IMG/VR virus record: IMGVR_UViG_3300020371_000002
Source of the DNA: a virus
Taxonomy: Duplodnaviria; Caudoviricetes
Strand: one strand, 5' to 3'
DNA length: 64,000 nucleotides
Numbering within the stretch: position 1 is the first letter of the stretch; every line of letters starts with the position of its first letter. The notes under the pieces are model-generated. The model saw nothing but the letters and a program-made list of their open reading frames with translations, had not been told where the DNA came from and made no database searches. Both the position numbers and the translations under genes were made by a program. Positions 25,230 through 35,312 of the stretch are shown in pieces.

Positions 25230-26047
25230 TATCCGATCATGTCTAGAGGTGGCATTGCATATTCAGTCATTAGTCTCTCTTCATGGTCTTCGATCTCTCT
25301 CTGAGCATCATCGAACAGTTGTCTACCATTCATTTCAAGACCGCCAGGAAGTTTGACCCCTTGGAATTTGATCAAGTTCTGACCCCACTGTCTCTTGATT
25401 AAAGAAGTTGTATATCTCTTTAACCAAGGATCGTTGTAAACAGAAGTTGCGGATTGTGGATCCACTTCTCTGTAACAATCAATAAGAATATAATGATTAG
25501 CCGTGACTTCACCAAGGTCAATATCTAAGTATAGTCTTCTATTTTTCTTGTTGAACCTAACCTGAGCATCAGGATTGATCATATAATCAAGAGTCTCAAG
25601 GTAAGATTTTACCATTCCATAATTTAACAGATCGATTGCTCCGTAGTAATATAAATCATTCAGGAACAATTGATATTTGATATTGAATAATCCGTCCGAA
25701 ACGGATGAAGAGTCAATCTTGAAGATCTTGTTTACTCCAATGATTGAATCTGGAAGAGGTAGATAATTAGCACCTTCCTCATATTCCATTGTAGAGACGC
25801 CGCCGTGGGTACTAGTCCCAGTGGTAGTAGAAGCAATACCTGCAAAAGTATCCTTCTCCACTTCAAGCAACTTATGCTTGAGAAAAACTCTGTCTATTCC
25901 CTCACCATGTCTTTCATGGTATAATTGGATGGCATCATCGATCAGATCCTCAACTTGATCGTCGTCAACGTTGATCTCCAATACTGGTTTACCGAGTTTC
26001 CTTAGACAGTATTCCTTCAACTCGTCTCTACTAGAGGGCTTTGCCAT
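25229..26047 (-). CDS. g13: Neck protein gp13
   Basis: MAKPSSRDELKEYCLRKLGKPVLEINVDDDQ, QWGQNLIKFQGVKLPGG; start at ATG 26047. Confidence 0.95.
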   Translation of the reverse strand: MAKPSSRDELKEYCLRKLGKPVLEINVDDDQVEDLIDDAIQLYHERHGEGIDRVFLKHKLLEVEKDTFAGIASTTTGTSTHGGVSTMEYEEGANYLPLPDSIIGVNKIFKIDSSSVSDGLFNIKYQLFLNDLYYYGAIDLLNYGMVKSYLETLDYMINPDAQVRFNKKNRRLYLDIDLGEVTANHYILIDCYREVDPQSATSVYNDPWLKRYTTSLIKRQWGQNLIKFQGVKLPGGLEMNGRQLFDDAQREIEDHEERLMTEYAMPPLDMIG

Positions 26048-26082: not shown

Positions 26083-26886
26083 ATCTTACTAACTGGTTAC
26101 AAAGGATTTATTGGTTCTCACTTCAGACAAGCACTAGGTGAAATGGGTGAGGACAAAGTGATTGGTGTCAATCAGGACAATGCCTGGGAGTTTGTCAGCA
26201 AGTTTGATGAATGGGATAAACTTAAATTAATTATTCATAATGGAGCAATGTCTTCCACCACAGAGAAGAACTGGATGACTATTGCACACTACAATCAAAA
26301 CTTCACTGCTCATCTCTTCGGAAAAGCAATAGAGTATCAGATTCCTATTAAATATGCATCCTCTGCTTCAGTGTATGGGAATCAAAAGAAGAATAGAAAA
26401 ATTATAAACCCGTTAAACCAATACGCCATTTCAAAACTAATCATTGACTACTATGTCTTAGACCATATAGACAAATTCAAACATATTCAAGGATTTAGAT
26501 ACTTTAATGTATATGGAACAGGAGAAGATCATAAGGGTGATCAAGCAAGTCCTATCAGTAAGTTTACCAAACAAATCAGAGAGACTGGAGAATTAACGTT
26601 ATTCGAAGGTTCTGATAAGTTTTATAGAGACTTTGTGTGGGTAAAAGATGTAGTGGATGTTGTTCTTAACAATACTGCTGATAGTGGTATCTACGATGTT
26701 GGTACGGGTAATCCAGTATCATTTGAAACTGTTGCTGAATTAGTCGCAAAAAAAGAGAAGGGAACCATAAAAAGGATCCCCTTCCCAGAACATCTTAAAG
26801 GTAAATATCAAGACTATACCTGTGCTAACAATTCATGGTATGAACATGATTACACTACTGTTGAAAGATATCTTGGAAGTGTATAA
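26080..26886 (+). CDS. gmhD: ADP-L-glycero-D-manno-heptose 6-epimerase-like extended SDR
   Basis: MILLTGYKGFIGS, IIHNGAMSSTTE, YASSASVYG, LNQYAISK (YxxxK), FRYFNVYGTGEDHKG-QAS, RDFVWVKD. The only supported plus-strand gene in the window. Confidence 0.85.
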   Translation: MILLTGYKGFIGSHFRQALGEMGEDKVIGVNQDNAWEFVSKFDEWDKLKLIIHNGAMSSTTEKNWMTIAHYNQNFTAHLFGKAIEYQIPIKYASSASVYGNQKKNRKIINPLNQYAISKLIIDYYVLDHIDKFKHIQGFRYFNVYGTGEDHKGDQASPISKFTKQIRETGELTLFEGSDKFYRDFVWVKDVVDVVLNNTADSGIYDVGTGNPVSFETVAELVAKKEKGTIKRIPFPEHLKGKYQDYTCANNSWYEHDYTTVERYLGSV

Positions 26887-27430
26887 ATCCCGTCGCAATG
26901 TATTTTTCATTTGAAGTGGGCATCTCTCCTTCATGTGCAAAGAGATAACTACATGGAAAGATAAGAACTTTTCCTGCTTCTGGTTTGATTGTTACATTGA
27001 GATCTGGAAACGATGTGCAACCACCCTCTTCAACATCATTTAGATAAGCAATAACTGCAAAGACTCTCGTAGCGTTTGGACCCGCAGTTTGATCAAAGTG
27101 TTCTAGGAAATGACCCCTGTCCTTTGGATACACTCGTACTGAAATATCTCGAAGAACTAGAGGTTCTCCCTTTGGAGTTAGATGTTCCGACTCATACTTC
27201 TCATATGCCCTAAAAAATCCTTGAGTTAGAAAATGGGATATAGCGTCATCAGGTTTAGGATATGCCTGAGTTGCAACTTTCTTAGTCCAATTCACGACTG
27301 AACCATTGGAATGGTCCATTGTTTTTCCGTCGTGATGTAATTCTGGAGTATTCTTAAACCAGTCAATAATAGTATGACATTCTTGCTGATCGTAAATGTC
27401 ATAACAACAAATAAATTCACTCAGTTCCAT
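26855..27430 (-). CDS. 2OG-Fe(II) oxygenase (prolyl-4-hydroxylase-like)
   Basis: HFD...AYLNDVEEGG-T-F...LIFP...AH (HxD...H triad); 3' end overlaps the gmhD 3' end by 32 nt. Confidence 0.88.
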   Translation of the reverse strand: MELSEFICCYDIYDQQECHTIIDWFKNTPELHHDGKTMDHSNGSVVNWTKKVATQAYPKPDDAISHFLTQGFFRAYEKYESEHLTPKGEPLVLRDISVRVYPKDRGHFLEHFDQTAGPNATRVFAVIAYLNDVEEGGCTSFPDLNVTIKPEAGKVLIFPCSYLFAHEGEMPTSNEKYIATGFIHFQDIFQQ

Positions 27431-27808
27431 TCAGTCTCCTGGAATGATACGATTACTATCTTCATCAAAATGTTCTGAACTAAACTCAAATAGTTCTGTG
27501 TCTTCCATGGCATACATTCTATGTTTCATTCCAACTGGAACATGAAATTTATCACCACGTTCTAAAACGTCTACCGTTGCCATTTCAATGTTGTCATCCC
27601 ATCCATAGTAGATTCTGATTTTTCCACTCTGAACATAAAAGACTTCATCTTTTAGTTTATGGTAATGCCATGAACATTTTTTTCCTTTTGCAAGGAAAAG
27701 AAGTTTACCGCAGTATTGATCGCAGTTTACAATCCACTTTTCATATCCCCACCCTTTAGGTACGAATTTAATTGGATTGCCCTGCCTCGGTCTTGAAGAA
27801 ATCTCCAT
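27431..27808 (-). CDS. Cupin-domain protein, putative sugar isomerase
   Basis: KGWGYEKWI, SWHYHKLKDEVFYVQSG (HxH...E), HVPVGMKHRM. Confidence 0.8.
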   Translation of the reverse strand: MEISSRPRQGNPIKFVPKGWGYEKWIVNCDQYCGKLLFLAKGKKCSWHYHKLKDEVFYVQSGKIRIYYGWDDNIEMATVDVLERGDKFHVPVGMKHRMYAMEDTELFEFSSEHFDEDSNRIIPGD

Positions 27809-28112
27809 CGTTTATACCTTTATCGTCAATGTAATAATCGGCAGAAGGTTTACCTAAACGTAAATCGGTAAACATGCATCCCCAATTACAAAGTTGTTTT
27901 AAAGTCAACTTGTAAAATGCATCATGTGCTTTTTGACAGTCATCATTAAATCTACCCATACCTCTAGCAGTAAAGTAGATTACCTCATTGCCTTTAATAT
28001 ATAGATCGTTTATTTGACAGATTCTATCATATCGGGGGACTGCGTGAGTATACTTTTCCTCACCCTCACCAGGATAACAGATAGTGCCATCAATGTCTAC
28101 CACATATTTCAT
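27768..28112 (-). CDS. Small HAD-superfamily phosphatase
   Basis: Motif I DIDGT, motif II FTARG, motif III GKP, motif IV YIDDK. Confidence 0.85.
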   Translation of the reverse strand: MKYVVDIDGTICYPGEGEEKYTHAVPRYDRICQINDLYIKGNEVIYFTARGMGRFNDDCQKAHDAFYKLTLKQLCNWGCMFTDLRLGKPSADYYIDDKGINDGDFFKTEAGQSN

Positions 28113-28885
28113 AGTTGTCCAATGTCGTTTTGTGTTAGTGTATAAACGCCAGGATGTTGAACCGACATCGCTGCAGCACGGTTTGCATAATCAATCGAAA
28201 CCTGCAAGTCATGGGTTTCCAAATGTCTTTTAACTAATGCGGCCAAGAATGTGTCTCCTGCACCAGTTACATCATACACTTTAACTTGGGACTCTAACGT
28301 AAAGGTAATGCCTGCCCACTTAGCACCCGCAGCACCCATCGTAACAATCATATGAGTATCGTGAGGCATATCTTCGTGTTTCTCTAAAAGATCATATTCT
28401 TTCTTATTGATCTTGTAGAAAACATTATCTTTATGATATAATTTTCTCTTTTTTGTATCTACGAAAATAGGGCCATTGAAACTTTCAATAATCTCTTTCA
28501 TCCTATCTTCGGGTAGAAAACCTTTACCATAGTCAGAAATGACCATGACATCAAATCCGCCAAAGTGGATAAACGATGATCTAAGTTGTGCTGCGGTGAT
28601 GGGACTGACTTCTTTGTCTTCGTCCATCCTCATTAATTGGTAACCACTATTCTCATCGATGAAACGAGTCTTAATGATATGTTCTTTATGAGTTAATAGA
28701 TCTGTAGCAACACCAAAAGATCTCAAATTATTATTGACATTGGCTGCCATTCCTTTGGTCTTCTCACTCCGAGAATACTTCAATACTGGAACAGGAGCTT
28801 CGGGACTTAATCTATCAACAGTACCGTAAACATATTCATCGTCACATGTATCTCCAAGGACGATTGCCTTAAATGTATCACTCAT
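28109..28885 (-). CDS. hldA: Heptose-7-phosphate kinase (HldA / HldE kinase domain, PfkB family)
   Basis: VLGD...DEYVYGTVDRLSPEAPVPV, GMAANV, SDYGKG, DVTGAGDTFLAAL. Confidence 0.88.
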   Translation of the reverse strand: MSDTFKAIVLGDTCDDEYVYGTVDRLSPEAPVPVLKYSRSEKTKGMAANVNNNLRSFGVATDLLTHKEHIIKTRFIDENSGYQLMRMDEDKEVSPITAAQLRSSFIHFGGFDVMVISDYGKGFLPEDRMKEIIESFNGPIFVDTKKRKLYHKDNVFYKINKKEYDLLEKHEDMPHDTHMIVTMGAAGAKWAGITFTLESQVKVYDVTGAGDTFLAALVKRHLETHDLQVSIDYANRAAAMSVQHPGVYTLTQNDIGQL

Positions 28886-29282
28886 AATTTCTCAAAATTG
28901 TTTGAATGACTTTTGTAGAAGAATATCCGCCGACTCTTGGTAAGTGTCGAACTTCCTTTGCAAAGTCTGCTCCAACAACATCACCATTCTTCCAGTCTCC
29001 TCCCAAAAGAAGAATATCTGGACTATACATTTCGATCAAATCTTCTAATTCTTTCCTACTATTAAAATAGTGTACAGTATCTATGTAACGAATAGATTGT
29101 AACATTGACATCCTATAGCATAAATCATTAATAGGCTTAGAGGGACCTTTGTCGTTCCTAATCTTTTCGTCCGTATCTGTCGCTACAATAAGTTTATCTC
29201 CTAGAGAAGCACCGACTTTAAACAATTCAATATGCCCTGGGTGCAAAATATCAAATGTTCCGTTAGTAAAAACAATCTTCAC
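28878..29282 (-). CDS. hldC: Heptose-1-phosphate nucleotidyltransferase (HldC / HldE domain II)
   Basis: IVFTNGTFDILHPGH, KGPSKPIN, GGDW, GGYSST; GTG start overlapping the upstream stop (GTGA). Confidence 0.88.
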   Translation of the reverse strand: MKIVFTNGTFDILHPGHIELFKVGASLGDKLIVATDTDEKIRNDKGPSKPINDLCYRMSMLQSIRYIDTVHYFNSRKELEDLIEMYSPDILLLGGDWKNGDVVGADFAKEVRHLPRVGGYSSTKVIQTILRNYE

Positions 29283-30082
29283 TTAGGTTCTCCGTACTGT
29301 CCATATTTTAAAAATTTCTGATACTCACTATGATTCACTGGTAAGAAAGTTCCTGGGCCACCTAAGAAGATGAAGAACATTTGAACCAATCTCCAAGTAT
29401 CTCCAGTAAACATTCCAGGTTTAATATAACCTGTATGGAGAATGTTTGCAGGATACATTACAAACCTATTATACTTCATTTCGGCAAGATGTATCAGTTC
29501 CCACTCCTCCTCACTATCTGTAATATAATTATCGTAATAGGGGTACTTATTTTTCTTCTTTAACCAGTTATCTATTTTATCTGGATTGCCCAGTTGATCA
29601 CCTTCTAAGGTATAAAATGATGTGCCACCTGCACATTCTTCATCCTTATTAAGATATACAGTTGCAGCATATAACATCCCACCATCATCATCCACATGGG
29701 GGACAATAGGTTTTAGATTTTCTGATTGAGTCACATTGACACAGAATGTCAATCCCTTAATGGAATCTTCTACCCTAGCAGGAGTAATTTTTTTCTCCTT
29801 CATGTGATCTCCATAAACACTACCAAAAATGTTAGTAAAGAATGGAGTTAATGATGAGAAATCATAGTATGCATCTACCCTGTGGCCAGGCGCCCCTGCC
29901 AAAATAATTGGATTATTCGTACATGGAATCTGTAAGGCCAGATCTCTAACCATTTCTGGGTTCTTGTAGAAGTTATCAATAGTGACAATTTTGGATTTCT
30001 CTGGTCCAATTGTATGAACACTTGCTTCTAGATCATCACCCAAAGCAAATACTTCATGTTCATCAATAAAAGCTTTTTTCAT
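29279..30082 (-). CDS. DUF6445-like putative 2OG-Fe(II) oxygenase, copy 2
   Basis: IDNFYKNPEMVRDLAL, PHVD, VYLN...GGTSFY, KYNRFVMYPANILH. Confidence 0.78.
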   Translation of the reverse strand: MKKAFIDEHEVFALGDDLEASVHTIGPEKSKIVTIDNFYKNPEMVRDLALQIPCTNNPIILAGAPGHRVDAYYDFSSLTPFFTNIFGSVYGDHMKEKKITPARVEDSIKGLTFCVNVTQSENLKPIVPHVDDDGGMLYAATVYLNKDEECAGGTSFYTLEGDQLGNPDKIDNWLKKKNKYPYYDNYITDSEEEWELIHLAEMKYNRFVMYPANILHTGYIKPGMFTGDTWRLVQMFFIFLGGPGTFLPVNHSEYQKFLKYGQYGEPK

Positions 30083-30813
30083 GGATCTAACGCAACGAAC
30101 ATCATTTGAATTAATCTATAGAGATCACCAGTAAACATATCTGGTTTCATATAAGCAGTATGTACTACATTGCCTGGATACATTACCAGACGATTATATT
30201 TCATTTCTGCAACACTGAGTAATTCCCAATCAGGAACATTATCAGTGTCTGTAATATAATGATCCCAGAATTTTTCTTTACCTTTTGATTTTAACCACTG
30301 ACCAATATCTTCATTGGTAATGGATTGTTTACCATTTAACATATAGAACGAAGTCCCGCCCTGGCACTCCTCAGGCGTGTTTAAATAGATTCCCGCAGCA
30401 AATAACATAGAATCCCTATCATCGATGTGTGGGGTCACTGGCGGTAGGTTTACGGACTGATTAATGTTGACACAGAAGGGAGTTGTACGAACTGACTCAT
30501 AAATTTGGTCATCACTAACATTCTCTGTCAAATCCCCATATACAGTCCTAAACAAGTGTCTAAAAATAGGATATAAAGATTCGAAATCATAATGACCAAA
30601 CACTCTAGTGCCAGGAGTTCCTGCCATTATCTTTGCATTCTCTGTCGGAGGAATACTTAAAGTAAGATCTCTAACCATGTCTGGATTCTTGTAGAAGTTA
30701 TCAACAACAACTACACGAACTTCTTCTGGTCCAATAACATGAACACAAGCTTCCAGATTTGGATTTACTTCAAAGACTTCTTTTTCATTAATAAAGGGTA
30801 TATTCATTTCCAA
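30079..30813 (-). CDS. DUF6445-like putative 2OG-Fe(II) oxygenase, copy 1
   Basis: VDNFYKNPDMVRDLTL, PHID, IYLN...GGTSFY, KYNRLVMYPGNVVH; clear paralogue of the adjacent gene. Confidence 0.78.
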   Translation of the reverse strand: MEMNIPFINEKEVFEVNPNLEACVHVIGPEEVRVVVVDNFYKNPDMVRDLTLSIPPTENAKIMAGTPGTRVFGHYDFESLYPIFRHLFRTVYGDLTENVSDDQIYESVRTTPFCVNINQSVNLPPVTPHIDDRDSMLFAAGIYLNTPEECQGGTSFYMLNGKQSITNEDIGQWLKSKGKEKFWDHYITDTDNVPDWELLSVAEMKYNRLVMYPGNVVHTAYMKPDMFTGDLYRLIQMMFVALDP

Positions 30814-34181: not shown

Positions 34182-35312
34182 TTACTTCGAAGACTTGAGA
34201 AGGTTCTCAACTTCGGATTTAAACCCCTTATTTGGTTTTACTGCTGTAGATGGAATTTTCAACTTGGTGGGTTCCATGGTTGAAAACTGTAAATTATTCT
34301 GAACAGGTGTAGGTGCAGCACACTGTTGACCTTCATTCTGTGTCAGTTGTTCTAAACTTGGACCAGTATACTTAACTGATTTGCCAAGTCTCTTTCTCGC
34401 AGAAGTAATAACTTCTCTTACTTGTGCATCAGACATTTCACATGCCTGATCATTATATCTAGTACGTTCTTCATCCATCGTAATTCTGATTGGATCGTAC
34501 TTTCTTCTACCTTCACCAACATCAACAATATCAAAATCCTTGAAGTCTGGATACGAAATGTTAATTGGGAATGTAGAACCAATAACAACAGTTGCTGTTT
34601 TCTTTAATGCTTTTGCGATGTGTTGTCCTACACTATCACAACCAATAAAATGATCAGCACCATCAATAACTCCAGCCCAAATTCGAATGTCTTCGATTTG
34701 TGGACGAGCGACTTTGTGTTTTGCCTTTTCTTCATTTTCTTCAACTGGGAAGTGAATTTCACTCATGATAGCAACAGCATAATCTTTTTTAAGATCATTG
34801 ATGATATCAACTGTATTGACCATGTTCATACTTCGTGAACCAGGATCAACAACAAAATCCCCCACACTGGTAACTCCTCTACCAAAAGGTTGAATAATAA
34901 CAACCTTTTCTTTACCAGTTCCTGCTTTAATTTCTGTAAGAATATTTTGTGCCGTTACAACTTCCATCTTCGAAAGATGGATACTTGGATCTTGCAGTTC
35001 TCTGGGTTCATCAAGCTCATTGATAATGATATCAAAAGCCTGTGCAAGATTACATTTTTGATTATAGTAGTGCCAACATCTGTAGGGTTCTGGACTTACG
35101 AGATCCCTATGAATCAAATGTTCTTCGAATAAATTTTTGTGCCAGGAATCATAACACTTGTTATGAAGAACTGGGTGTCCTTTATAAAAATCTGTGCCCG
35201 CCTCACAAACGATAACAAAATCGTCGTGGGTTTCGGCGTATTTTTCCAATGCTGGGATAGAAGACAGGACTCTTCCTGCTCCACCATTAATAAAGAATGC
35301 TTTAGGTCTCAT
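34182..35312 (-). CDS. GT-B glycosyltransferase, GT9 (heptosyltransferase)-like
   Basis: N-terminal GGAGR..SSIPAL (cf. GT9 xxGD...PAL), VIIQPFG, and FIGCDSVGQHIAKALKKTATVVIGSTFP matching the GT9 signature IGxDSGxxHxAxAxxxPxVxxFGxTxP. Confidence 0.65.
   Translation of the reverse strand: MRPKAFFINGGAGRVLSSIPALEKYAETHDDFVIVCEAGTDFYKGHPVLHNKCYDSWHKNLFEEHLIHRDLVSPEPYRCWHYYNQKCNLAQAFDIIINELDEPRELQDPSIHLSKMEVVTAQNILTEIKAGTGKEKVVIIQPFGRGVTSVGDFVVDPGSRSMNMVNTVDIINDLKKDYAVAIMSEIHFPVEENEEKAKHKVARPQIEDIRIWAGVIDGADHFIGCDSVGQHIAKALKKTATVVIGSTFPINISYPDFKDFDIVDVGEGRRKYDPIRITMDEERTRYNDQACEMSDAQVREVITSARKRLGKSVKYTGPSLEQLTQNEGQQCAAPTPVQNNLQFSTMEPTKLKIPSTAVKPNKGFKSEVENLLKSSK

Follow-up and report, generated by a model that had tools for sequence, protein, structure and literature searches.

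A small metal cupin probably takes the place of GmhA in a heptose module of marine cyanomyoviruses

The window analysed here, a stretch of 64,000 nucleotides (IMG/VR record IMGVR_UViG_3300020371_000002), is part of the genome of a marine T4-like cyanomyovirus, in which PHROGs recognise the major head, portal, terminase, sheath, neck, and fibre proteins. It carries a putative heptose module consisting of four overlapping open reading frames (ORFs) on the minus strand and one ORF on the plus strand. The minus-strand ORFs encode a 134-residue HldC-like heptose-1-phosphate nucleotidyltransferase with a GTG start (28878–29282), a short HldA-like heptose-7-phosphate 1-kinase of the PfkB type (258 residues; 28109–28885), a minimal, capless HAD phosphatase of 114 residues proposed as a GmhB analogue (27768–28112), and a 125-residue metal cupin proposed as a sedoheptulose-7-phosphate isomerase (27431–27808). 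The overlaps between successive genes are 8, 4, and 41 nucleotides. The plus-strand ORF encodes an HldD-like NDP-heptose 6-epimerase of the short-chain dehydrogenase/reductase (SDR) type (26083–26886). A first-pass annotation of this DNA had given the order hldC, hldA, HAD, and cupin, and the ORFs were found exactly as it described them. The genes are real, each of them being conserved in hundreds to thousands of homologues. Their closest annotated relatives belong to Synechococcus and Prochlorococcus myoviruses; a megablast search of the module gave no match in a phage collection from which the genome of the window and the records nearest to it may be missing. We propose with good confidence that the five genes form a phage route to activated heptose, in which the cupin would serve for GmhA and the 114-residue HAD for GmhB.

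Three of the five classical heptose steps have recognisable homologues in the module, with heptose-pathway families as the clear best matches. The HldC-like protein matched PF01467 (CTP_transf_like) at E 1e-16, and its top NCBIfam match was TIGR02199 (rfaE_dom_II; 110 bits against a cut-off of 181.5). Both HPGH and RVGGYSST are present, as is the RxxGxS(T/S)(T/S) pattern. In the PDB search, TagD scored slightly above Burkholderia HldC, and the C-terminal RVGGYSSTKVIQ was aligned with RTEGISTTKI of TagD. The first-pass annotation had read the C-terminal SST, instead of STT, as a hint of another nucleotide specificity. The same position is STT, STS, ATS, or GTT in the HldCs of canonical operons and STT, STS, SSS, or SST in phage HldC homologues. 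Since SST lies inside this normal variation, the motif is no evidence for a different nucleotide, and that suggestion was not supported. For the HldA-like kinase, TIGR02198 (rfaE_dom_I) was the top match (134.7 bits; cut-off 345) and Burkholderia HldA (4e84) was the best PDB match. The SPEAPVPV lid motif and DVTGAGDT are present in this kinase, which is approximately 60–90 residues shorter than cellular HldA. The epimerase, named by the first-pass annotation among the steps that the pathway needs, had TIGR02197 as its best model by a wide margin (E 4e-62; 210 bits, cut-off 274.6), and the next family, GalE, was approximately 160 bits lower (48 bits). Its ORF opens with TTG at 26041, the likely start is the ATG at 26083, and the GxxGxxG and YAISK motifs are present. 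Because C6 epimerisation presupposes a heptose as the substrate, the HldD-type enzyme points to a heptose rather than a hexose as the sugar of the module.

The cupin has complete metal-cupin motifs (H48, H50, E55, and H96). In the family alignment, H50, E55, H96, and K53, the lysine two residues before the glutamate, were invariant and H48 was nearly invariant; these five residues align with 2y0o and 7nzo. When a profile built from 36 diverse family members was compared with PDB, the D-lyxose isomerases 2y0o (E 8e-11) and 7nzo (E 1e-9) came first, and CapF was approximately six orders of magnitude weaker (E 2e-4). The motifs YCxK, HxH..KxE(T)F, and E-x-S are common to the cupin family and the D-lyxose isomerases. 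D-lyxose/D-mannose isomerases catalyze aldose-ketose isomerisation and act on lyxo/manno-configured sugars; the GmhA reaction has this same stereochemistry. Their family, PF07385, was not listed for the window cupin at E<0.01; with 27.2 and 21.8 bits, respectively, the cupin relatives P0316 and P0320 exceeded its cut-off of 20.8. Judging from these sequence matches, the window cupin family is a shorter subfamily related to the PF07385 enzymes. The two groups are alike in the cupin fold, the HxH..E..H site, and YCxK plus KxE(T)F. The known enzymes (2y0o, 7nzo, and 3kmh) are 170–230 residues long with insertions and use unphosphorylated sugars, whereas the phage cupin family is approximately 125 residues long, is distinguished by a C-terminal EFSxxHxDxDSxR motif, and is set in sugar-phosphate pathways. 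An exhaustive search of representative proteins with the cupin yielded 1139 proteins at E<=1e-10. Four metagenomic proteins (P0252, P0274, P0257, and P0305) join the cupin to an HNH-like endonuclease region, an unassigned region of approximately 250 residues, or dNMP-kinase-like regions; such proteins probably stem from fusions in viruses or from gene calls that ran through a stop.

The AlphaFold2 (AF2) model of the cupin (pLDDT 88) is a cupin beta-barrel. As this fold is not SIS and no SIS family was matched, the cupin may work like GmhA but is, by these comparisons, no member of the GmhA family (TIGR00441 / PF13580). Among the structures aligned, lyxose isomerases had the highest identity to it (25–28%). 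The cupin-type phosphomannose isomerases (PMIs) of Thermococcus, which are approximately 110 residues long, also matched the model (Z 15.7, root-mean-square deviation 1.5), which counts in favour of an isomerase. The cupin could also be read as a PMI converting fructose-6-phosphate to mannose-6-phosphate, so that the module would make ADP-mannose or another hexose nucleotide. The structural similarity to small archaeal cupin PMIs, weak GMP_PMI matches, and the name "mannose-6-phosphate isomerase-like" that JGI gives to homologues are in line with this. However, a hexose offers no stereocentre to an HldD-type 6-epimerase, the kinase and nucleotidyltransferase best match heptose families, and the published "MPI" that cyanophage S-SCSM1 encodes (PMC9602691) is a member of another family; we consider the PMI assignment extremely unlikely. 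The S-SCSM1 protein was also rejected as prior art for the cupin, its record being absent from the 35 matched records even at E 1e-3.

The small HAD carries the motifs D6xD8xT10 (DIDGT), T48, K88, and D96-D97, which were invariant in 20 homologues. It had no Pfam match, and its best family was TIGR01689 (EcbF/BcbF; 23.9 bits, E 3e-5), far under the cut-off of 162. The PDB matches were 1xpj (E 2.7e-7) and the "capsule biosynthesis protein" 9iqw. It shares with the EcbF/BcbF phosphatases the minimal capless HAD architecture of approximately 110–135 residues and the same four motifs. TIGR00213 was not matched by the HAD, and its relatives reached only approximately 15 bits on TIGR01662. An HldA-type kinase gives a 1,7-bisphosphate, whose 7-phosphate must go before nucleotidyl transfer; therefore, a phosphatase is required in the module.

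The first-pass annotation had also claimed that the window is devoid of SIS-fold GmhA and of canonical GmhB. This was borne out by local hidden Markov models (HMMs), with which neither an SIS protein nor GmhB was detected in the window, and the same held beyond it. SIS_2 was not found in the record nearest to the window (G001), which has 83% of the sampled words in common with it and is 69% complete. Six-frame searches of five complete cyanophages bearing the module (Sf-FS3, P-SSM2, S-SSM7, P-TIM68, and S-SM2) revealed no SIS_2, no gmhA, and no canonical GmhB; the sole HAD-IIIA-like signal in them was the same small HAD gene. Cyanobacterial lipopolysaccharide (LPS) reportedly lacks heptose (PMC4390846), and the phage would therefore need the whole route. 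In Synechococcus elongatus, used as a control genome, an rfaE domain I match was present at E<=1e-40 and no gmhA match was present at E<=1e-12.

The linkage of the cupin to the other genes was examined in 80 IMG/VR loci that carry it. The small HAD lay beside the cupin in 77 of them, typically with an overlap of approximately 25 nucleotides. Among the 28 cupin loci flanked on each side by at least 3.5 kb, the HAD, the kinase, and the nucleotidyltransferase were each present in 27 and the epimerase in 22, and SIS was present in none. Furthermore, the cupin was found fused to the kinase in both orders (HldA-cupin, P0269; cupin-HldA, P0320), to HldC (P0254, P0280, and P0330), and to the HAD (P0251). 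In P-TIM68 (L004, 1941–3086) and S-SM2 (L005, 1–270), the heptose module adjoins "transketolase central region" proteins. Transketolase makes sedoheptulose-7-phosphate, and this neighbourhood may reflect a link to precursor supply.

When genomes of cellular organisms were scanned with the HldA-cupin fusion, 17 metagenome-assembled genomes (MAGs) were retrieved. They span Saccharibacteria, Peribacteraceae, Minisyncoccia, Woesearchaeota, Nanoarchaeia, Methanosarcinales, Thermoplasmata, Planctomycetales, and Melioribacteraceae, and include three unclassified bacteria. HldA was present in all 17 and HldC in 16; GmhA above the curated cut-off was present in none, and only two had mid-score SIS matches. 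In four loci (L015, L017, L018, and L019), the cupin lies beside HldA, HldC, and canonical GmhB (135–181 bits, TIGR00213 and NF006506). HldD is in the cupin cluster of L018 and L019; the L015 cluster has none, and the L017 contig ends in hldC. The cellular cupin operons retain canonical GmhB, and the small HAD is missing from them, with a weak match to it in only one of the 17; in phages, conversely, the small HAD is present and GmhB is absent.

Saccharimonadia allowed the two isomerase genes to be compared within one group. HldA was detected in 39 of 42 genomes and GmhA in 36 (171–214 bits), usually adjacent to hldA. When a strong cupin was defined as one of at least 150 bits, 35 of the 39 HldA-bearing genomes had GmhA without a strong cupin, three had a strong cupin without GmhA, one had neither, and none had both; all three strong-cupin genomes belong to the six of the 42 in which GmhA was not detected. 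The operon of G030 reads gmhA-hldA-gmhB-hldC-hldD, and G028 has the identical order through hldC, where its contig ends. In G006 the operon reads cupin-hldA-gmhB-hldC-hldD, and the other four genes of this swapped operon are close homologues (approximately 300–400 bits by phmmer). The cupin in place of gmhA is, as judged by gene order and homology, a positional non-orthologous displacement. Cupin relatives of approximately 170 residues (77–88 bits) occur in G028, G032, G052, and G054, of which three have GmhA and G054 does not; they probably form a different, lyxose-isomerase-like subfamily.

The first-pass annotation had proposed that the cupin and the HAD are non-orthologous replacements acting from sedoheptulose-7-phosphate. 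Comparative genomics supports this in silico through the swap of gmhA for the cupin, the fusions to HldA, HldC, and HAD, the profile similarity to lyxose isomerases, and the near-obligate viral linkage. It is very probable that GmhA, the usual first enzyme, is replaced by this small cupin, to which it is unrelated.

Several points weigh against this assignment. All phage module proteins score below the curated equivalog cut-offs. MAG incompleteness weakens the absence calls, and the three cupin-bearing genomes of Saccharimonadia may go back to one event in evolution; other lineages among the 17 MAGs display the same pattern of cupin with HldA and no GmhA above the cut-off. By fold, the C3-epimerase domain of CapF, KdgF, and others are as close to the cupin as the isomerases are (Z 14–16, tied), and fold comparison therefore cannot separate isomerase from epimerase cupins. 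Finally, one Saccharibacteria MAG (L022; CAZWBU010000005.1, 704–10208) pairs cupin-HldA with a GmhA-like SIS gene (91 bits) that lies inside an HddA-GmhA-GmhB-HddC set.

The tie in fold bears on a possible late role for the cupin, in which its substrate would be the nucleotide sugar and it would be a CapF- or WbuC-like metal epimerase or a hydroxylating double-stranded beta-helix enzyme, with the isomerase supplied by the host. The CapF cupin domain was the top Foldseek and VIA match, the WbuC family was matched weakly, HldC-cupin fusions exist, and Iyer et al. (2021; PMC7824862) placed the cupin of the S-SSM6a cluster among hydroxylating enzymes. We nevertheless regard such a late role as very unlikely, given that CapF fell so far behind the lyxose isomerases in the profile search, that the minimal cellular operons consist of the cupin and four canonical genes only, in genomes without GmhA, and that host LPS is reported to be heptose-free.

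The L022 locus bears on a second question, namely which product the isomerase would make. It contains cupin-HldA with a GT9-like heptosyltransferase, two GT2 genes, and the complete alpha-route set, so that the two heptose routes, and the two types of isomerase, adjoin in one cluster. The cupin and GmhA are therefore not always mutually exclusive, and the product of the cupin might differ from that of GmhA. The cupin could then be the aldose-ketose isomerase of the pathway without being equivalent to GmhA, acting toward another C2 (or C2/C3) epimer or on another ketose phosphate, and the nucleotide-heptose made by the module would not be L,D-manno-heptose. The non-redundancy hinted at in L022, the scores of the kinase, nucleotidyltransferase, and epimerase well under the equivalog cut-offs, and the many tailoring enzymes of the operon are consistent with this. 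On the other hand, the Saccharimonadia cupin takes the place of gmhA while the other four operon genes stay close homologues, the closest solved relatives have lyxo/manno specificity, and the GmhA of L022 belongs to the separate alpha-route (HddA/HddC) set; we judge a different product to be unlikely. It would be similarly improbable that the cupin is a stereochemically distinct heptose-phosphate isomerase with which ocean cyanophages and cells of the candidate phyla radiation (CPR) and DPANN make an undescribed nucleotide-heptose isomer. There is likewise only a small chance that, as an extension of that idea, the phage sugar is carbamoylated or oxidised and placed by the GT9-like transferase described below on virion or host-surface targets.

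Here, we showed that the genes are present, with their folds and motifs, their linkage and fusions, and the cupin in place of gmhA. We propose a pathway in which the cupin would act as the counterpart of GmhA, and its substrates, stereochemistry, nucleotide, and acceptor are inferred. In the first step, the metal cupin would isomerise sedoheptulose-7-phosphate to D-glycero-D-manno-heptose-7-phosphate by a metal-assisted aldose-ketose mechanism as in D-lyxose/D-mannose isomerases. The short HldA-like kinase would then phosphorylate C1, the capless HAD would take off the 7-phosphate in place of GmhB, the HldC-like enzyme would add the nucleotide, and the HldD-like SDR would epimerise C6. The five chemical steps would be those of the classical GmhA-HldA-GmhB-HldC-HldD pathway, the kinase, nucleotidyltransferase, and epimerase are homologous, and the same operon logic recurs in Saccharimonadia. 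In contrast to the classical pathway, the proposed first step uses a cupin instead of an SIS-fold GmhA, and the phage third step would use a 114-residue EcbF/BcbF-type HAD instead of an HAD-IIIA GmhB of approximately 180 residues; in addition, the phage kinase is cut to 258 residues, and the kinase and nucleotidyltransferase are encoded by separate genes.

The same genes are known from the cyanophage "LPS gene cluster" T4-GC 304–308 of P-SSM2, S-SSM7, and S-SM2 (Sullivan 2005, 2010) and from the S-SSM6a cluster; the present reading differs from the earlier ones in assigning the isomerase step to the cupin. Sullivan et al. (2010; PMC3037559) reported that T4-GCs 304, 305, 307, and 308 co-occur, and Iyer et al. 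described the HAD as a sugar-dephosphorylating phosphatase. In GenBank/RefSeq, the small HAD is labelled "phosphoheptose isomerase" in P-SSM2, S-SSM7, S-SM2, S-CAM1, and others, a label repeated in a genome announcement (PMC7378029), and the cupin is labelled "cysteine dioxygenase", "hypothetical", or "cupin 2". By the motif and family assignments above, public records misname both genes. In a literature search for the cupin with GmhA or sedoheptulose, no paper proposing that a cupin replaces GmhA was found.

The cupin family is widespread: at least 562 IMG/VR contigs represent it among marine cyanophages, and it also occurs in CPR bacteria and in DPANN and other archaea. If the proposed function is correct, EC 5.3.1.28 would comprise two enzyme families that are not homologous, the gap that the pathway seems to have in many apparently gmhA-less genomes would be closed, and long-standing misannotations in model cyanophages would be corrected. 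It would also mean that phages build a bacterial-type heptose donor from an intermediate of the Calvin and pentose-phosphate pathways in hosts whose own LPS reportedly contains none of this sugar. Such a function would also matter for the targeting of GmhA by drugs and for the question of where ADP-heptose, which is an agonist of innate immunity, comes from.

A candidate user of the activated heptose is a 376-residue GT9-like heptosyltransferase at the operon head (34182–35312, minus strand). It had no Pfam match, and its profile found no PDB sequence match. Foldseek on its AF2 model, whose quality is mediocre (pLDDT 63), placed the GT9 structure 3tov first (3e-6), with heptosyltransferase II (1psw), TibC, and WaaC also matched; TibC is protein-heptosylating. 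JGI names some of its homologues "ADP-heptose:LPS heptosyltransferase". On the strength of this model, the GT9-like protein is a likely consumer of the module product, and the acceptor would probably be reached through it. The protein has a low-confidence C-terminal tail containing Cys/Pro.

Directly 3' of the cupin lies a 2-oxoglutarate (2OG)-Fe(II) oxygenase gene (26855–27430, minus strand; PF13640, E 6e-13), on which the plus-strand HldD-like gene converges. The position directly after the cupin is likewise occupied in Sf-FS3 and S-SSM7. The module is part of a longer minus-strand run that includes a carbamoyltransferase, a Trp-halogenase-like flavoprotein, two DUF6445 proteins, and 2OG oxygenases. 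The DUF6445 proteins are tandem paralogues of 267 and 244 residues, encoded at 29279–30813 on the minus strand between the halogenase-like gene and HldC.

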